Assembly (NCBI GenBank): GCA_000004695.1
Contig: CM000153.2
Location: 5,088,001 to 5,152,000, forward strand
DNA length: 64,000 nt
Direction: 5' to 3'
From: Dictyostelium discoideum
Taxonomy: Eukaryota
Shown here: in pieces, positions 54,310 through 64,000 of the stretch
Numbering within the stretch: position 1 is the stretch's first letter
Layout of the letters: each line of letters opens with the position of its first letter
Notes under the pieces: model-generated
The model's input: the letters and a program-made list of their open reading frames with translations, nothing else
Databases searched by the model: none
What the model was told of the DNA's origin: nothing
Translations under genes and position numbers: made by a program

Positions 54310-55794
54310 GTTGATATTAAATTTGATATTACATGAATTCTTATCAGAAAGGCAATTGATACCATAATTATTATAATCACTTGTTTTTTGAACATTTAAA
54401 AAAACAGTTGAATTTATAGTTATGTTTGAAGAACCACAAAATATATTTGAACCATTACCATTTATTAGTGGTGAACCATCAATTTTATTATCAATAAATT
54501 TAACATTATTAATAGAAATAGTGCAATTTAAATTATAAATTGAACCACCTAAACCATTTTTAGCAAAATTTTCATTAAAAATTGTATTGGAAATGGTTAA
54601 ATAATTACTACTTTGATTTGTACCACATTGATCTATATAAATTGCACCACCATTTTGAGCATGATTATTTGTAAAAGTACAATTGTTGATAGTTGCTTGG
54701 TTATTCAATAGTGTGATTGCACCACCAACATTATTAATGTAGTTATTAATATTGTTATTTTCAAATGAACATGAATCAATTACTGATTGACCTCCATTCT
54801 TTAGTAAAATAGGTAAAGTGTTTAAAGTATTAACAAAGTTACAAGATGAAAATGAACTCGTTGCACTTGAGTCACCAGATATTTGAATGACAATTCCACC
54901 ATATGTATCAGTGACATTAACATTACTAAATTTGAAAACTGGTATACTTGGAGTAGTTGTAGAAGTATTGTTGTTATTATTGGTTTTAATTAGATAAATT
55001 GAATTATTTGAACTACCACCAGTAATAATTGTATTGGAAATTGACAAGAAACCATTATTGATCATTAATATACTACCAATATCATTGGAAACAAAATTTA
55101 AAATATTTGAATCTTCAATTGTAAAAATAATTGGTATGCCATCACTATAAATAATACCACCAACTGCATTCACAAGTTTAGTGTTGTTAAATGTTGATTG
55201 AATGATTGAAACGGTACTATTTTTAGTTGATGAAGGTGAAGGTAATGGTAAATTATTTTTTAAAAATGCAAAAGTTCCACCTACATGATAAGCAGCGTTT
55301 CTGTAAAATGAGCATTTTGTAACTGATAAATTTATTAAACTTGAACCATTCACTAATACAACAGATCCATCAGATAAACCATTCTTAAATGTTATACCAT
55401 AAAAAGTAATATTATTTACATCTAGATTACTCTTTATTTGAATATTTATAAATGGGTCTATTAATTCTGTTAAATCTAAAAATACATTTGGTGCAATAAT
55501 ATCTGGTGAGGCTGAATTTATTATTGAAATGGTTTTATTTGTAATTTCACCAAATGTTGTTTTTTCAACATTATAATACCCTGGACTGATTGTCATTAAC
55601 ATTTCAGAGAATTGGCCACAATTTGAAATTGACTGTGAAATTGTTGAACAAGGATTATCTGATGTTCCACAATCATTTGAATCTGAATTTGAATCTGAAT
55701 TAACAAAAGTATTACAAACCTGACAATTTACAAAGCCAATTAAAAAATTTATAATAATAATTAAAAAAAACAATAAGTAATTGTTTTTCTTCAT
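54082..55794 (-). CDS. Type I membrane protein with a parallel beta-helix / Chlamydia PMP-like (GGAI..FxxN) repeat ectodomain, 570 aa
   Basis: Seen in sequence: signal peptide 'LLFFLIIIINFLIGFVNC'. Repeated 'GGAIYIDQ', 'GGSIYNLNCTISINNVKFIDN', 'GGIIYSDG', 'GGAITLLNNQATINNCTFTNNHA' and 'GGTFAFL' fit the PMP/pectate-lyase-like beta-helix repeat signature. A single C-terminal TM 'IGISLGVIGAVIIISVVVVLIA' is followed by the basic stop-transfer 'RKIKRD'. Confidence 0.65.
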
Positions 55795-56134
55795 TTTTTT
55801 TATATTATAATATGTAAATAAAATATTTTTTTTTTAAAAAAAAAAAACAAAAAAAAAAAAAAAATAAAAAAAATAAAAAGAAAAAGAAAAAGAAGATTTT
55901 TTTTTTTTTTTTTGATAATTTTTGATATTTATAGATTTTTTTTTTAAAAAAAAAATGACGTGGTAATCAAAATTGGTAAAAAACAATTATTTAATTAAAT
56001 TTGTTTTTAATATGGATTCAATATAGATAAATAGAGCACCCAAAAATACACAAAAGGATATAAAATATAAAAAAAAAAAAAAAAAAAAGTATAAAAATTA
56101 AATCATTTCGATTAAAATTAATTTCTCTTTTATT

Positions 56135-57250
56135 TTATGCATAGTTGACTGTAGAAGTAATTAATTCATTTGTTAAAAATGTTGCATAGGAAAAAGGAAA
56201 GCTCTTATATAATTTTCTATATCCTTGAGTTTTTACTAAATTAGTTGCTATTGAGATTGGATTAGTTGACAATAAATTAACAGAATTACCAAGATAACGT
56301 TGAACGAATAAAAAAGACAATTGACAAAGAACTGTTTCGCATGGAACGATAGCCAACGTTCTTAAAAAGGTTTTAGCGTATATTGATTTAATTATGAGTG
56401 TTGAATTTCTCCAAAATGTTGATTTTGGATTCTCTAATGATTTAGATTCGACATATTCAATTAATATATTATGTAATTTATTTACAATACCCTTTATAAG
56501 TCTACCTGTAGTATGCATCGCAACTGATGAAATAAAAGCGTAGGCTTCATTTTTAAAATTTAATTTTCCAGTTACCCCATCTTGACAAAGTACAACTTTT
56601 TTAATTAATTCCAAAAATGATAGTTTGTTGGCAGTTTGTATATAACATTCAAGTGAGAATGCAACAAATGATGTATAACACCATAGAATTTCATCCATTA
56701 ATTTACCCATTGTTGAGGATGGATAGATTAATTCATCCTTTAATTTAAAAAGTGGTCGTAGTAAGGAAGGAGCAAAGGTTTGTGCTAAAATGATTTTACC
56801 TAATGAAAATGCATTATTATTTCTATTGAATGATTGAAGAACTCCAAGTGAGTTAGAATAACTTGGAGTTGTATTTATAACAAATGAAGCTATTTTAAAT
56901 CTTGCTGCTAAAATTCCCATAATTGAGAGTAGGGTATGATTTTTTTGATTTAATGATTTAAAGTATTCAAGTTCAAAGGTGACCATCTCATCATGTATTT
57001 CTCTATCATAATAATCCCTTAACCTTTTATCTGAAATTACTGAATAGGCCGCATCGAAACTCTCTGTTTTTTGTTTATCATTTTCGAAATTACTTCAAAC
57101 TTTTTTATTTAAATGAGCAATTTTATCGATAGTATCTTCTTTTTTAACTCCTAAAAATCTATAAAGTTCACCACAATGACATTCATGTGTTGCATAAAAT
57201 ATTTTTACTTTATCTTCTTCAGTAATTGGAAAAATTTGTGTATCTTTCAT
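56135..57250 (-). pseudogene. J-like domain + divergent mitochondrial-carrier fusion gene, copy 1, interrupted by an in-frame TGA at about 57094-57096 (possible recent pseudogene)
   Basis: Seen in sequence: the reverse strand reads 'MKDTQIFPITEEDKVKIFYATHECHCGELYRFLGVKKEDTIDKIAHLNKKV*SNFENDKQKTESFDAAYSVISDKRLRDYYD...MVTFELEYFKS...'. It continues as ORF 56135..56986. The frame is otherwise uninterrupted and colinear with copies 2 and 3. TGA replaces the Lys/Arg codon, AAA or AGA, of the paralogs. Confidence 0.55.
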
Positions 57251-57532
57251 TTATTTATTTATTTTTTTTTTTTTTTTTTTTTTGTTTAAATTATAATGTA
57301 TAATAATAATGATTCTGTTTTTTTTTTAGATATTTTTTGGAAAATTGAGTTGATTTTTTTAAAAAAATAAAACCATCATCATAATTTGTTGTAATCATAA
57401 TTAGTTAATAGAAAAATAAAAAAAGAGGGTTACACTCTTATTAAAAAGTACTCAAAATCATTTTAATTTTAAAGTTTAAAGAAAATTAATTTTATTATTT
57501 ATTTTTAGGTTTATTATTATTATTTTAAAAAA

Positions 57533-58657
57533 TTAAAGGTCTGTTGATATATTAGAAATAAGGTATTCTTCTAATAAAAGGGAGATATAAGAAAATGGTA
57601 AAGATTTATATAATTTTCTATATCCTTGAGATTTTACTAAATCAACTGCTAATGAGATTGGATTGATTGATAATGATAGAGTTGGTTTACCAAGATAACG
57701 TTGAACATATAAATAAGAGTATTGAGAATGAATTGCTTCATATGGAACGAGGAACAATGACATAAAAATACTTTTAACGTATATTGATTTAATTATGAGT
57801 GAGTTTCTCCAAAATGTTGAATTTGGATTCTCTAATGATTTCGACTCAACATATGCTTCAACTTTATTATAACCAATTCTTAAGAGTCTACTTAATGCGT
57901 ACATTCCAAATGATGAAATAAAAGTGTAGGCTACATTTTTAAAATTTAATTTTCTAGTTACCCCATCTTGACAAAGTACCACTTTTTTAACTACTTCCAA
58001 AAACGATAAATTGTGTGCAGTTTGCATATAACAATCAAGTGGGAAGGTTATAATAAATGTAGAGAGATAGGAAACAATTTCATCTGTTAATTTACCAACC
58101 ATTGAGAATGAATAGGTGTATTTATCCTTCAATATAAAAAGTGGTTGAATTATCATTGCAAGAGTTGAAGGAAGCATTGCTTGTGTCAAAACGATTTTAC
58201 CTAATGAAAATGCACTATGTTTTTTAATGAAAGATCTGAGAATTTGAAGTGAACTAATTGATGGTGGACTTGGAGTTGTATTTATTACAAGTGAGATTAT
58301 TTCCAATGGTGCTAATAAAGCTCCAATTGTTGAGAGTAGGGTTTGATTTTTTTGATTTAATGATTGAAAATATTTAAGTTCTTCTCTAACCATATCATCA
58401 TACAATTTTTCATCATAGTAATCTCTTAATCTTTTATCTGAAATTATTTCATATGCTGCATCCAAGCTGGCCGTGACTATTTCATCATTTTTAAAATTAC
58501 TTTTAATTTCTTTATATGTATGAGCAATTTTATCAATAGTATCTTCTTTTTTAACTCCTAAAAATCTATAAAGTTCACCACATTTATGATACTGAATTGC
58601 ATAACAAATTTTTTTAACATCTTCGATAGTAATTGGGAAAATTTGTGAATCTTTCAT
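57533..58657 (-). CDS. J-like domain (no HPD) fused to a divergent three-repeat mitochondrial carrier family (MCF/SLC25-like) domain, copy 2, 374 aa
   Basis: Seen in sequence: the N-terminal 'GELYRFLGVKKEDTIDKIAHTYKEIKSNFKNDE..ASLDAAYEIISDKRLRDYYDEKLY' aligns with J-domain helices II-III (DYYEILGV...EIKKAYRKLA.KYHPD...EAYEVLSD..KR..YD). 'FKND' stands in place of HPD. There are three MCF-like repeats: 'ALLAPLEIISLVINT...FSLGKIVL', 'ITFPLDCYMQTAHN..VVLCQDGVTRKLNF' and 'FLVPYEAIHSQYSYL...DLVKSQGYRKLYKSLPFSYISLL' (cf. Px[DE]xx[KR] ... EGxxxLYKGxxPxxxR). Confidence 0.7.
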   Translation of the reverse strand: MKDSQIFPITIEDVKKICYAIQYHKCGELYRFLGVKKEDTIDKIAHTYKEIKSNFKNDEIVTASLDAAYEIISDKRLRDYYDEKLYDDMVREELKYFQSLNQKNQTLLSTIGALLAPLEIISLVINTTPSPPSISSLQILRSFIKKHSAFSLGKIVLTQAMLPSTLAMIIQPLFILKDKYTYSFSMVGKLTDEIVSYLSTFIITFPLDCYMQTAHNLSFLEVVKKVVLCQDGVTRKLNFKNVAYTFISSFGMYALSRLLRIGYNKVEAYVESKSLENPNSTFWRNSLIIKSIYVKSIFMSLFLVPYEAIHSQYSYLYVQRYLGKPTLSLSINPISLAVDLVKSQGYRKLYKSLPFSYISLLLEEYLISNISTDL

Positions 58658-59351
58658 TTGTTTTTATTTAATGTTAATAATAATTGATTTATTTTCTTTT
58701 TTTTTTGATTAAAAGTGAAAATAAAAAAAAAAAAAATTTTTTGTTTTTTATTAGATATTTCCCAAAAAAAAGATATTTATGTGGGGTAAGCCATAATTTA
58801 TTTTATTTTTTTTTTAAAAATTAAAAACAAAAAAAAAAAAAAAGAATTGTTGTGGAAATAGAGATAAATTAATTAAAAAAAAAAAAAAAAAAATTAAATG
58901 ATTTTGAAAGGGAAACAATAGTTTTACTTGATTGATAAAAGGAAAATGATAAATAAGGTAATGATAACTCGAGTGATGAAAAAATTACTTTAAAAGAGAA
59001 TGAAGATTATGTTATCAATCAAGAACAAGACAAGAAGAAATCATGGTTACTCGAGATATGGAAATTTAATGAAGATTTAGAATTCATATGACGGTAAAGA
59101 AGATGGTGTTTATTATGAAATGGACAAGATGGTGATGAAGAGGATGAAGAATTTAAATAATTATGTAAAAAATTATGTTTAATTCTAAAATGTGATTCAA
59201 AAAAATGCATTATTTCAATTCAATTTGAGTTTAACTTAATTTTTTTTATTTATTGCAATTTTTTTTTTTTTGTTTTTTATATTTTCTATTGTTTTTATAT
59301 ATTTTGAAATTTAATATTTCAGGAATTTTCCAAAGATGGATGGTAAAAATA

Positions 59352-59778
59352 TTAAACAGTATTGCAAGTCAAAACAGTTGAACCTTTGTTTGTTAAGGTT
59401 AATTCAAATCCTCCAAAACTACGGTCATATTCGCCAAAGTCATTAAATGTATCCTGTTCAGCTGGTGAGACTCCAGCTTGCATTTGAATTGTACCAACAC
59501 CACCCCCATCAACTTCACAATTAACAACTGTTGGTTTTGTTGCCCATGTTGGCTAAAAATATATAAAAAAATAAAAAAATAAAAAAAATAATAAATAAAA
59601 GGTTAGGATTTTAAAATGAAATAAATATATTATAAAATTTAATAAAATTTACAATTGATCCTTGAGATTGTCCTGGTTGTAAAGTCCATGGTCTAAATAA
59701 TAATAATTTTAGGTTATTTATTAGATACAATTTCAATTAAAAATGAAAATTTTTTTTATCTTTATATTACCCAGCCAT
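59352..59778 (-). CDS. Small three-exon gene (82 aa) with GC3-biased codons, missed by the ORF track: complement(join(59352..59552,59653..59692,59771..59778))
   Basis: Seen in sequence: 'aaaaaATGGCTGG|gtaata' gives exon 1, MAG. An 'ttatttag' acceptor leads to 'ACCATGGACTTTACAACCAGGACAATCTCAAGGATCAATT|gtaaat'. A 'ttttag' acceptor leads to 'CCAACATGGGCAACAAAACCAACAGTTGTTAATTGTGAAGTTGATGGGGGTGGTGTTGGTACAATTCAAATGCAAGCTGGAGTCTCACCAGCT...ACTTGCAATACTGTTTAA'. The protein is 'MAGPWTLQPGQSQGSIPTWATKPTVVNCEVDGGGVGTIQMQAGVSPAEQDTFNDFGEYDRSFGGFELTLTNKGSTVLTCNTV'. The lengths are 8+40+201 = 249 nt = 83 codons, with consistent phases. Confidence 0.5.
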
Positions 59779-60726
59779 TTTTTATTTAATTTTTTAATTT
59801 ATTTAGAAAATTTTAAGATGTTAGAAAATTTTATAATTATTTAATTTTTAATTATTTAATAAAAAAAAAAAAAAAAATTTAAATATTTTTTTTTTTTTTC
59901 TCAAAAAAAAAAATCAAATTTTAATTCTTAAAATAAATAATTAAAATTCAAACAATCTATTTTTTTTTGGGCATTATAAGAAAAGATTATTTTTTATTGT
60001 GATTTTGATAAGTAAGTTGGTTCTTCTCTAAACAAAAAATAGAAAAGAGGTTTTGTTTTTAAGTTTTCTCCACAAAATATTAAAAAAAAAAAAAAAAAAT
60101 TTATTTTTAACCAAAACTTTCCAAATTAGATTTTTTTTTTTGGGTGAATTTGGCAATTTTTTATTTTTTAAAAAAATTAAAATAAAAATAAAAAATGGTT
60201 GTAAACGTGTTGTTTAAATTGACTTTTAGTACTCTTTTTTTTTATTAATATTATTAAATAATTCCAATTTTTTATGGGCATTATTAGAATTTATTTTGTA
60301 AATATGGTAAAAATCATTTTTATGTTTTTTTTGTTTTTTTTTTTGTTTTTTTTTTTGACCAGTTAGGTGTCTCTTAATTATCCAAAAGTTTTTTTTTTTT
60401 TTTAAAAAAAGGCATTATTTGCAAATGATAATTCAAAAAATAAAATAAAAAATAAAAAAAAATAAATGCCACAATTTTAATTTGTTATGACTTTAAATTT
60501 ATTTTTTTCTTTTTTTTTATTTTTTATTTTTTATAATTTTTATGATTAATGCTTTTAACAAAATACCACAATTTAGAAACACTTTTAAATATTTATTTTA
60601 ATTTGATTTTGCTTGGAACTGGTTTTAATTTTTTGTGATAATAAATATTCACTTAAAAAAAAAGTTTCACAATCTTTATTATAATATACTAATAAATCCT
60701 TGTTTTTTTATTTATTAATTTTAAAT

Positions 60727-61869
60727 TTATTCTGAATATTCTAAATCTCCTTTTAAAAAAGAGTATACAAATCCTTCCAATAAATGTATTAAATAGGAAA
60801 ATGGTAAAGATTTATATAATTTTTTAAATCCTTGGGTTTTTACTAAATCAACTGCTAATGAGATTGGATTGTTTGTTAATATTTGAACTGGGTTACCAAG
60901 ATAACGTTGAACATATAAATAAGAGTATTGAGAATTAATTGCTTCAAGTGGGGCTAGAACCAATGACATTAAAATACTTTTAACGTATACTGATTTAATT
61001 AAGAGTGCGTTTCTCCAAATTGCTGAATTTGGATTCTCCACTGATTTCGATTCGATATATCCTTCCAATTTATCAACTCCAATTCTTAAAGTTTTACTTA
61101 ACACATAAATTCCAAATGACGAAATAAAAGTGTGGGCTAAATTTTTAAAATTGAATTTTCCAGTCACCCCATCTTGACAAAGTACAACTTTTTTAATCAC
61201 TTCAAAAAATGATAAATACTTTACAGTTTGTACATAACATTCAATTGGAAATATAACAATGAATGATGAAAAGTAGTTTATAATTTCATCTGTAATTTTA
61301 CCGGTTTTAGAGAATGGATATGCGAATTTATCTTTTAATCTGTAAAGTTGTTGTTGAACCAATATTCCAATAGTTGATGGAAGAACTGCTTGTGCTAAAA
61401 AGATTTTACCCACTGATAAAAACCCATTATTTTTAAAGAACGATTGAAGAATTTTCATTGAACTAACTGATGATGACGAATTTGGTGCAGTGTGTATAAT
61501 AACCGATACCATTTCCAATGGTGCCAAAGCAGTTCCAACCATACTGAGAAGAGCATTATTTCTTTTACTTATTGATTGATTATATTCAAGTTCTATTCTT
61601 ACCAACTCGTTATAAAAATTTTTATCATAGCAATCTCTTAATCTTTTATCTGAAATTATTGAATATGCCACATCTAAACGTTCAAGAGTCATTTTATCAT
61701 TTTCAAAATTACTTCTAATTTCTTTATATGTAAGAGCAATTTTATCAATAGTATATTCTTTTTTAACTCCTAAAAATCTATAAAGTTCACCACATTGACA
61801 ACCATCAAAGGCATAAATAATTTTATCAACATCCTCTTGAGTGATTTGAAAAATTTGTGTATCTTTCAT
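60727..61869 (-). CDS. J-like domain + divergent mitochondrial-carrier fusion, copy 3, 380 aa
   Basis: Seen in sequence: 'GELYRFLGVKKEYTIDKIALTYKEIRSNFENDK..LDVAYSIISDKRLRDCYD' (J-like). Three MCF-like repeats: 'ALAPLEMVSVIIHTAP..FLSVGKIFL', 'IVIFPIECYVQTVKY..VVLCQDGVTGKFNF' and 'VLAPLEAINSQYSYL..DLVKTQGFKKLYKSLPFSYLIHLL'. Colinear with copy 2 at about 60% identity. Confidence 0.7.
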   Translation of the reverse strand: MKDTQIFQITQEDVDKIIYAFDGCQCGELYRFLGVKKEYTIDKIALTYKEIRSNFENDKMTLERLDVAYSIISDKRLRDCYDKNFYNELVRIELEYNQSISKRNNALLSMVGTALAPLEMVSVIIHTAPNSSSSVSSMKILQSFFKNNGFLSVGKIFLAQAVLPSTIGILVQQQLYRLKDKFAYPFSKTGKITDEIINYFSSFIVIFPIECYVQTVKYLSFFEVIKKVVLCQDGVTGKFNFKNLAHTFISSFGIYVLSKTLRIGVDKLEGYIESKSVENPNSAIWRNALLIKSVYVKSILMSLVLAPLEAINSQYSYLYVQRYLGNPVQILTNNPISLAVDLVKTQGFKKLYKSLPFSYLIHLLEGFVYSFLKGDLEYSE

Positions 61870-62411: not shown

Positions 62412-64000
62412 TTATTTTCCTCTTAATTGATTCCTTCTATGTTTAAAAATGATAAACATTCCAATAAAGATGCAAACCAAATTGAAAACAAAACTTAAAA
62501 TAAAACATGTTCTAAAACAATGAGTTCCATGACACTTTTCTCCATCTACTGATAAACTATCATAAATCTTACTGCTAAATGTGCTAAAGGCAAGTGATGC
62601 TGATGCTGATGAAATTGCCAACTAAAGAAAAAAAAGTAAAATATTAATATTTTAATTTTAAAAATAAAAAAAAATAAAAAAACAAATAAAAAAATAAAAA
62701 AAAAAAAAGAGAGAGAGAAAAAGGAAAACTTACAAAACCGAAATTAATACCAAATCTTCTTGGACCAAATCTTAAACTTGTTAATGATACCATAATTGAA
62801 ACCATTCCACCATAACCAATTCCAGTAATTATAGTTGCTGGATAAAACAAAGCATCTAATTCAAATGAAATGATTAAATGAGTTAAAGAGAGTATAAAAC
62901 TAGATAGAACAACGCACCAGAATCTAGAATATTTTTTAGATCTATTAAATAAATAAAAAAATTTAAAAAAAATTAATTAATTATAATGTTAAATAAATAA
63001 TAGTAGTAAATAATTCCAAAAAATAAAATAAAATAAAAATAATACAAACATAAAATCAGATAATAAACCATTTCCAGCTCTACCTGTCAAATTACTACAT
63101 GCGAAAATAATAACAAGATCACTATAATATGTATATTAATTAATTAATAACAGTTTAATTTTTATTTTTTTTTTTATTTATTTACATGTAATTAGTTTTT
63201 ATTAACAAACATACCTATGAATTGAAGATGGTCTATTAAATGCTTGAGCCATAACTGCAATATTATTTAAAAACATTAAACTAGTACCTGCTGCAAAGAA
63301 ATAAATAATCCACATTAACCAAAATTCCCATTGCTTTAATAATTTTAAACCTGAAATATCTCTTCTACCTATAAACATTTAATAATTTATTATTTGTTAA
63401 TAATGAAAAGAGAGAGGAAAATAAAATAATAATAATAATAATTTTTTATTTACCATCTAAATAATTTGGATTTCTTTCTACATCTAAATCTGCACCTATA
63501 GCTGCAACCTCATCAAAATCTTCGATTTTGTTTAGTAATTTATAACTAGAAGAATCTAAACTATTATTATTATTAGTAATATTATTAATTAAAGTTTTTA
63601 ATTTACCTCCTTTTTTTTGCATATTAACATCACTACTATTTAAGTCACCACTACCCTTGTTATTATCACTACTACTACCACTACCACTACTAGAGGTACC
63701 ATTCTCCTCATCAATTCCAATGTTGCCACCATTTGTAATAGAATTACCACTTATTGTTAGATCTTCAGTACTTTGGTTGAATTGATCACTTAATTTTTGT
63801 TCTTTTTTATCAATTGAATTATCAAGTTGATCAGCATCATCACTATCACTTTGAATTTCTGGTTCTTCGACACCCTCAACCTTTACAACTCTAACAATAA
63901 ATGCTGAAATAAATGCAACAGAACTAAGGAGAATGGCTAAAAATAATAAATATCCTTCGACATCATTATTCTTTTTAAATGTTGATTTATAAATAATACC
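62412..64000 (-). CDS. Multi-exon major-facilitator-like (MFS/nodulin-like) transporter, 3' portion only. The gene continues beyond the window end. At least five exons.
   Basis: Seen in sequence (reverse strand): a large Ser/Asn-rich cytoplasmic loop runs 63440-63990 ('...ILLSSVAFISAFIVRVVKVEG...DSDDADQLD...'). Exons carry 'GRRDISGLKLLKQWEFWLMWIIYFFAAGTSLMFLNNIAVMAQAF' (about 63220-63370) and 'DLVIIFACSNLTGRAGNGLLSDF' (about 63040-63120). Another carries 'YSRFWCVVLSSFILSLTHLIISFELDALFYPATIITGIGYGGMVSIMVSLTSLRFGPRRFGINFGF', with a GTAAGT donor at about 62732. The terminal exon is 'LAISSASASLAFSTFSS...IFKHRRNQLRGK*'. The exons are separated by AT-rich GT..AG introns. Confidence 0.45.

Follow-up and report, generated by a model that had tools for sequence, protein, structure and literature searches.

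A single in-frame stop codon in the Dictyostelium discoideum gene DDB_G0286975 and its probable status as a young pseudogene

On chromosome 4 of D. discoideum AX4, the gene DDB_G0286975 (positions 56135..57250, minus strand, of the window, by which we mean the whole 64,000-nucleotide stretch of DNA that was analyzed) reads as a J-like plus mitochondrial-carrier-like frame interrupted by one premature TGA, and this raises the question of whether the locus still encodes a protein and, if it does not, how and when it was lost. DDB_G0286975, which we call copy 1, lies beside two related genes, copy 2 and copy 3, and a preliminary description of this DNA had claimed a frame that is continuous and colinear with these two copies except for the TGA. 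We recovered the same coordinates: from the ATG at 57250 to the TAA at 56135 the minus-strand frame contains 372 codons and only one internal stop, i.e., the TGA of codon 52 (57097..57095, minus strand; ...IAHLNKKV*SNFENDK...). This codon falls at the end of J-domain helix II, with the position of the HPD motif four residues further on. Copy 1 is colinear both with copy 2 (DDB_G0286955; 57533..58657, minus strand; 61% identity), which is intact, encodes 374 aa and has a translation exactly equal to XP_637487, and with copy 3 (DDB_G0286977; 60727..61869, minus strand; 55% identity), which is also intact, encodes 380 aa and has a translation exactly equal to the DDB_G0286977 protein. Beyond the TGA, 320 codons remain open in DNA of ~25% GC, within a window that is very AT-rich throughout (GC 18-28%), and their translation is 55-82% identical to intact relatives; a downstream frame of this length and similarity is beyond chance. 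The last part of it, starting at Met89 (MVTFELEY...), forms a residual ORF of 283 codons (56135..56986, minus strand) that covers the carrier-like part only, exactly as the preliminary description gave it.

The codons that relatives carry at the site of the TGA indicate what was there before. Copy 2 has AAA and copy 3 has AGA, as had been reported (Lys or Arg in the paralogs); in addition, one sister lineage has AGA in its syntenic ortholog, a different sister isolate has AGA in its unlinked paralog, and the unlinked AX4 paralog DDB_G0287215 has AGG. Because of these codons at the aligned site, AGA (Arg) is taken as the ancestral codon of the copy-1 clade, and the TGA would have arisen from it by a single A>T transversion, the change that had been proposed before and that fits the codons of the relatives.

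The family to which these genes belong is recognizable by descent and by fold, and only marginally by standard domain models. Against Pfam PF00226 (DnaJ), copies 1-3 score 11.2-14.8 bits, below the gathering cut-off of 27.8, and PF00153 (Mito_carr) is hit in copy 3 only, by one repeat at 20.9 bits against a cut-off of 22.3. When the family profile was compared with solved structures, it matched J domains (E=1e-4, residues 29-83), and no carrier was found by sequence in this search. The HPD tripeptide between helices II and III is required to stimulate Hsp70; in the subfamily present in the window its position is occupied by E-N-D or K-N-D, i.e., HPD is lost, and members from D. purpureum and Acytostelium keep KYHPDK. 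The carrier-like part is identified by its structure: an AlphaFold model of copy 2 (pLDDT 78, pTM 0.64) has a six-helix carrier fold, and the top 12 matches of this model in a Foldseek search of the PDB are all carriers (probability 1.00, target TM-score 0.49-0.60, ~300 aligned columns), including the yeast and bovine ADP/ATP carriers, UCP1 and carrier subunits of Tetrahymena complex IV. Intact members contain P-x-[DE] three times (P117, P206 and P305 of copy 2 are invariant), with the basic residue of P-x-[DE]-x-x-[KR] mostly absent. A profile search of 1.8 billion representatives returned full-length relatives (E 1e-29 to 1e-5) from dictyostelids only, and several distant members exceed the Pfam thresholds for both domains (DnaJ 59-71 bits, Mito_carr 24-49 bits). 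The label "J-like/MCF" of the preliminary description is therefore sound as a statement of descent and fold, resting on the profile, on Foldseek and on the distant members, and does not hold as a formal domain assignment, since the copies in the window fall below the Pfam thresholds and have lost HPD. The family occurs across dictyostelids, joins a J domain to a mitochondrial-carrier-like domain and is uncharacterised. In architecture and full-length homology, the genes of the window resemble DICPUDRAFT_77012 of D. purpureum, SAMD00019534_056960 of Acytostelium subglobosum, and DDB_G0289991 and DDB_G0285611 of AX4; unlike these distant fusion proteins, the subfamily in the window is without HPD, has both domains below threshold and retains few carrier signature residues. 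A full-text search found no papers naming the four gene identifiers.

The nearest relative of copy 1 lies outside copies 2 and 3, a fact absent from the preliminary description. It is DDB_G0287215, an unlinked and intact AX4 gene of 370 aa with 82% amino acid identity to copy 1, located 21-32 kb from a chromosome end in the AX2-like assembly. An intact counterpart at the original position was found in assembly GCA_054859235.1, in a region (L005) that is colinear with the window at 85% over 4.8 kb; there the MFS gene is followed by copies 3 and 2, then by an intact copy 1 of 369 aa and the gene after it. Copy 1 of AX4 is 77% identical to this syntenic ortholog at the amino acid level, and is colinear with both the ortholog and DDB_G0287215 over ~365 residues. 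In a neighbour-joining tree, copy 1 of AX4 groups with the DDB_G0287215 clade, and the syntenic copy 1 of GCA_054859235.1 joins outside this pair.

In three other genomes, copy 1 is deleted or decayed, which had likewise not been described before. Two assemblies labelled D. discoideum, GCA_054859355.1 and GCA_054859385.1 (loci L001 and L006), are without copy 1: homology to the window ends 68 nt past copy 2 and restarts 47 nt past the copy-1 stop, and the intervening filler, ~1.7 kb of unrelated DNA shared by the two, contains no copy-1 remnant by sensitive blastn or tblastn. The two fillers (L001 7206..8974 and L006 8209..9918) are 82% alike and have an internal inverted match of ~240 nt (96%). 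In the third assembly, GCA_054859205.1 (L007), a remnant of ~210 nt from copy 1 or its paralog clade persists, with stops and deletions; it is most similar to DDB_G0287215 (85% identity), followed by the intact syntenic copy (81%). Every genome examined contains at least one intact member of the pair formed by copy 1 and DDB_G0287215: the assembly with the intact syntenic copy 1, GCA_054859235.1, is without an annotated DDB_G0287215 ortholog, and DDB_G0287215 is intact in all other discoideum-clade genomes examined.

Two further observations concern the surroundings of these genes. On the contig of GCA_054859205.1 that bears copies 2 and 3, a separate gene elsewhere (P0019, ACTFIY_007901) encodes an incomplete protein of 275 aa, of the DDB_G0287215 type but without the J-like domain, and this is more evidence for turnover in the family. 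The spacer between copy 3 and copy 2 (58934..60698) is ~1.77 kb long in AX4 and in the AX2-like assembly, and ~230-390 nt long in four other genomes; it contains a GC-richer, coding-like fragment (59352..59555, minus strand; PTWATKPTVVNCEVDGGGVG...TCNTV*) for which there is no Pfam match and no called gene.

Copy 1 has accumulated damage other than the TGA, and the description of its ORF as "otherwise intact" is accordingly right for the reading frame, in which there is no frameshift, and wrong for its content, which shows three in-frame indels, the loss of the ancestral stop and five replacements at invariant sites. Where the unlinked paralog and the syntenic ortholog still end with the ancestral stop TAG, copy 1 reads TAT (56141..56143, minus strand), so that its frame is two codons longer. 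The copy-1-specific indels, all on the minus strand, are a 12-nt insertion (LHNI; 56465..56476), a 12-nt deletion (within 56753..56770) and a 3-nt deletion (within 56657..56671). The five replacements are unique to copy 1 at positions that are invariant in the family and include the prolines of two P-x-[DE] motifs. In repeat 1 the carrier-signature-like motif APFE/APLE has become ARFK only in copy 1 (56885..56908, minus strand), in repeat 2 an invariant Pro is Ser (56642..56659, minus strand), and in repeat 3 an Arg is Leu (56321..56347, minus strand).

Rates were estimated by the Nei-Gojobori method and by a relative-rate test on three sequences, in which the syntenic ortholog served as outgroup. 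This analysis demonstrated 59 lineage-specific changes in copy 1 of AX4 vs 20 in DDB_G0287215 (p=1.3e-5), made up of 18.7 synonymous and 40.3 nonsynonymous changes in copy 1 and of 7 and 13, respectively, in DDB_G0287215; 37 of the 40 nonsynonymous changes of the copy-1 lineage are located in the carrier part. The copy-1 branch has a dN/dS of 0.61-0.77, and its sister branch one of 0.36-0.49. The family is fast-evolving, with pairwise dN/dS mostly 0.4-0.6, and the value for copy 1 is modestly over the family norm and short of 1. For the whole copy-1 branch the synonymous fraction is slightly over the neutral expectation (p=0.034), and for the carrier part alone p=0.12; this weak rejection of full neutrality is as expected for a recent lesion.

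Some features of the rates stand apart from the question of the stop. Synonymous changes in copy 1 are ~2.7 times those in its sister (18.7 vs 7, p=0.03; copy 1 compared with L004 5001..6113), an excess for which relaxed selection alone is insufficient. Gene conversion from copies 2 and 3 was considered as a cause of the long branch and rejected, since only 8 and 7 of the 74 copy-1-specific sites match these copies, at scattered positions, and a control lineage gave a higher fraction (5/26). In addition, the intact copy 3 (60727..61869) has a dN/dS of ~0.95 (dS 0.05, dN 0.048) between AX4 and a wild D. discoideum (L001 4575..5711), which suggests very weak constraint or diversifying selection on this member.

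The number of stops places the inactivation late relative to the age of copy 1. About 6.4% of random point changes in the copy-1 ORF give a stop, so that a branch that had been neutral over its whole length (dS about 0.09-0.11) is expected to carry 6-8 stops, and only 1 is observed; the probability of at most one stop is 0.0006-0.017 across the modelled stop fractions, and 0.002-0.017 for fractions of 0.06-0.07, which bracket the measured value. The neutral time since inactivation has a point estimate of ~0.015 substitutions per site and a 95% upper bound of ~0.05-0.07. The earlier claim that the inactivation was "very recent" is thus borne out in relative terms; it does not extend to the other peculiarities of copy 1, much of whose oddity is older than the stop.

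From these observations we consider it likely that copy 1 is a recently inactivated, redundant duplicate, i.e., a young pseudogene, and that the introns annotated in it are not real. Translation from the normal ATG would end after 51 residues, within the J-like domain and before the whole of the six-helix carrier-like domain, and we infer that the TGA allele would be a null allele. Three points speak against a pseudogene: the open 283-codon ORF and the in-frame indels fit a recent inactivation and also continued selection on the carrier part, the dN/dS of copy 1 exceeds the family norm only modestly and is not 1, and the excess of synonymous changes is not accounted for by relaxed selection.

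The first of these points bears on the first alternative, raised for translation in the preliminary description, namely that translation or transcription starts downstream and that use of Met89 (56986) yields a 283-aa membrane protein without the J-like domain. The open ORF of 283 codons, the fact that all three lineage-specific indels are in frame, and the synonymous fraction slightly above neutral for the whole branch (p=0.034) all agree with such a carrier-only product, and the annotation of a sister isolate includes a partial copy without the J-like domain (P0019, 275 aa). However, a ribosome passing from the TGA to Met89 would meet five out-of-frame ATGs, some of which open ORFs that overlap Met89, and reinitiation or leaky scanning is therefore disfavoured. 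The DNA before Met89 is coding-like, with no AT-rich, promoter-like stretch, and Met89 itself is an ordinary internal residue that is Leu in copy 3. Nor does the pattern of change point to a protected carrier domain: it is the carrier part that holds 37 of the 40 nonsynonymous changes, that has lost the invariant prolines of two motifs, and for which neutrality is not rejected (p=0.12). With the out-of-frame ATGs in front of Met89 and most of the lineage-specific damage in the very part that would be translated, we regard a carrier-only protein as unlikely.

A second alternative is contained in the public annotation itself, in which the TGA is buried within annotated introns, a circumstance that had gone unmentioned in the preliminary description. 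The AX4 GenBank model (XP_637486 / Q54L17; 322 aa) places a 147-nt intron at 57062..57208 (minus strand; GTAAAA...ACAGAG), and a second annotation (KAM9941772; 358 aa) places a 39-nt intron at 57062..57100 (minus strand; GTTTGA...ACAGAG). Splicing out 147 nt or 39 nt from the window sequence reproduces each deposited protein exactly; both introns are in frame, have GT..AG ends and span the TGA. If the 147-nt intron is genuine, what had been exon sequence became an intron after or with the nonsense mutation (intronization), giving a 322-aa protein. The GT..AG ends and the preserved frame are compatible with this, as are a length near the 133 nt of the average D. discoideum intron and a 5' GTAAAA that in part resembles GTAAGT.

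Comparison with introns of the same region argues otherwise. We reconstructed three introns of the neighbouring MFS gene by ORF continuity (63214..63122, 63049..62942 and 62733..62622), and these have a GC content of 7.4-11.6%, a 5' GT[AT][AT]GT with G at +5, and a 3' TAG. The 147-nt and 39-nt candidates are without G at +5 and without 3' TAG, and the 147-nt one has no T-rich tract at its 3' end. Their GC contents (23.8% and 25.6%, respectively) are close to that of the CDS (27.8%), with intergenic DNA at 11.5-12.4%, and the 23.8% of the 147-nt segment is exon-like and two to three times that of the local introns (7-12%). The 39-nt intron chosen by the second pipeline is implausibly short, far under the median of 104 nt for D. 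discoideum introns, and because the introns of the two pipelines differ, neither model is based on common transcript evidence. There are also 33 frame-preserving GT..AG pairs of 30-400 nt that are able to skip the TGA. Finally, the 147-nt segment codes for the conserved core of the J-like domain (CGELYRFLGVKKEDTIDKIA...) and is conserved, translated sequence in all of the 20-odd relatives, with no intron there.

Because of the exon-like GC, the weak splice sites, the 33 options and the conserved coding content, both annotated introns would appear to be gene-prediction artefacts that keep the frame open, and the deposited copy-1 proteins of 322 and 358 aa are probably fictitious. Look-ups of the exact products (the 283-aa ORF, the 51-aa N-terminal ORF and the 322-aa GenBank model) in the assembly collection gave no match, a result of no weight since the GenBank protein itself is missing from that index. 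We therefore hold a genuine 147-nt intron to be very unlikely, and it is just as improbable that an intronized DDB_G0286975 survives as a 322-aa carrier-like protein that has shed a degenerate J-like domain; if true, this would be a dated and polarised exon-to-intron conversion, with the ancestral exon state kept in the paralogs and in sister species. False-intron prediction errors have been recognized from genome-wide skews, with none for D. discoideum, where the 3n fraction is 0.335 (Roy and Penny 2007; PMC1950532). The copy-1 introns resemble that class in being 3n in length, exon-like and placed exactly over a stop, and in that two pipelines disagree on them; they differ from it in concerning a single gene and a real mutation, with no assembly error.

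Under a third alternative, a full-length protein of 371 aa is made because the TGA is decoded, through selenocysteine insertion or programmed readthrough. The frame does run on perfectly beyond the TGA, and a few selenoproteins are known in Dictyostelium. Searches for a SECIS element or any other Rfam family found none at E<=10 in 55000..58000 and none at gathering score across the whole window, shuffled versions of the copy-1 3' UTR fold about as well as the real one (z=-0.07), and at this position the relatives carry Arg or Lys, not Cys; selenocysteine was rejected. The base following the TGA is A, which is not among the known leaky contexts. Decoding of the TGA in either form is extremely unlikely.

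The last alternative, that the reference was missequenced or misassembled at the TGA and the gene is intact, found no evidence in its favour and is hardly credible, since the same sequence is present in an independent de novo assembly made from long and short reads. This assembly, GCA_054883475.1, was reached through its model KAM9941772, which is found in the 90%-identity cluster of the AX4 protein. Aligned with the window over 13.1 kb, it shows 1 mismatch and 5 gaps, and because of these differences elsewhere it is independent and not a copy of the reference; the 1116 nt of the copy-1 gene are identical in both, the TGA included, which disposes of the sequencing error that the preliminary description had allowed for. 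Its likely source is the study of Holland et al. 2025 (PMC12745789), in which Nanopore and Illumina reads were combined to assemble de novo the genomes of nine wild isolates, "genetically diverged from AX4", and of a single laboratory strain, AX2-214. Given its near-identity to AX4, and with AX2-214 as the sole laboratory strain of that paper, GCA_054883475.1 is probably AX2-214. The assignment of the strain names AX2-214, CR116C, OT3A, M4B and S6B to locus-tag prefixes is likewise putative. AX2 and AX3/AX4 are separate derivations from NC4. On this strain history, the TGA would be older than the laboratory split of AX2 and AX4.

Returning to the pseudogene reading, we propose the following course of events. 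After the split from the lineage of GCA_054859235.1, copy 1 would have given rise to the unlinked copy near a chromosome end, DDB_G0287215, and the original copy would then have been lost independently several times, as redundancy with DDB_G0287215 would permit. In two wild D. discoideum genomes, unrelated DNA may have taken the place of the original; in a sister lineage, it would have decayed to the ~210-nt remnant; and in the AX4/AX2 (NC4) lineage, the nonsense mutation from AGA to TGA would represent a third loss, at its earliest stage. The closest known pattern is non-functionalisation of a redundant copy after duplication, or relocation of a gene by duplication and differential loss. Copy 1 resembles duplicated (unprocessed) pseudogenes in having an intact close paralog, a nonsense lesion, a faster rate and independent losses in related genomes. 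Unlike a typical duplicated pseudogene, it is very young, with one stop, no frameshift and intact flanks, and its dN/dS is not 1.

The biology of this locus is ordinary and has no bearing on long-standing open questions, and the value of the finding lies in the correction of annotation: DDB_G0286975, listed as an intron-containing coding gene (XP_637486 / Q54L17; KAM9941772), should be flagged as a probable pseudogene. For the family, the locus would provide a small and well-polarised case of duplicate turnover, in which a tandem gene seeded an unlinked copy and was then itself lost in three ways in close lineages, and it may be usable as a teaching and calibration case for the dating of pseudogenes in a very AT-rich genome.
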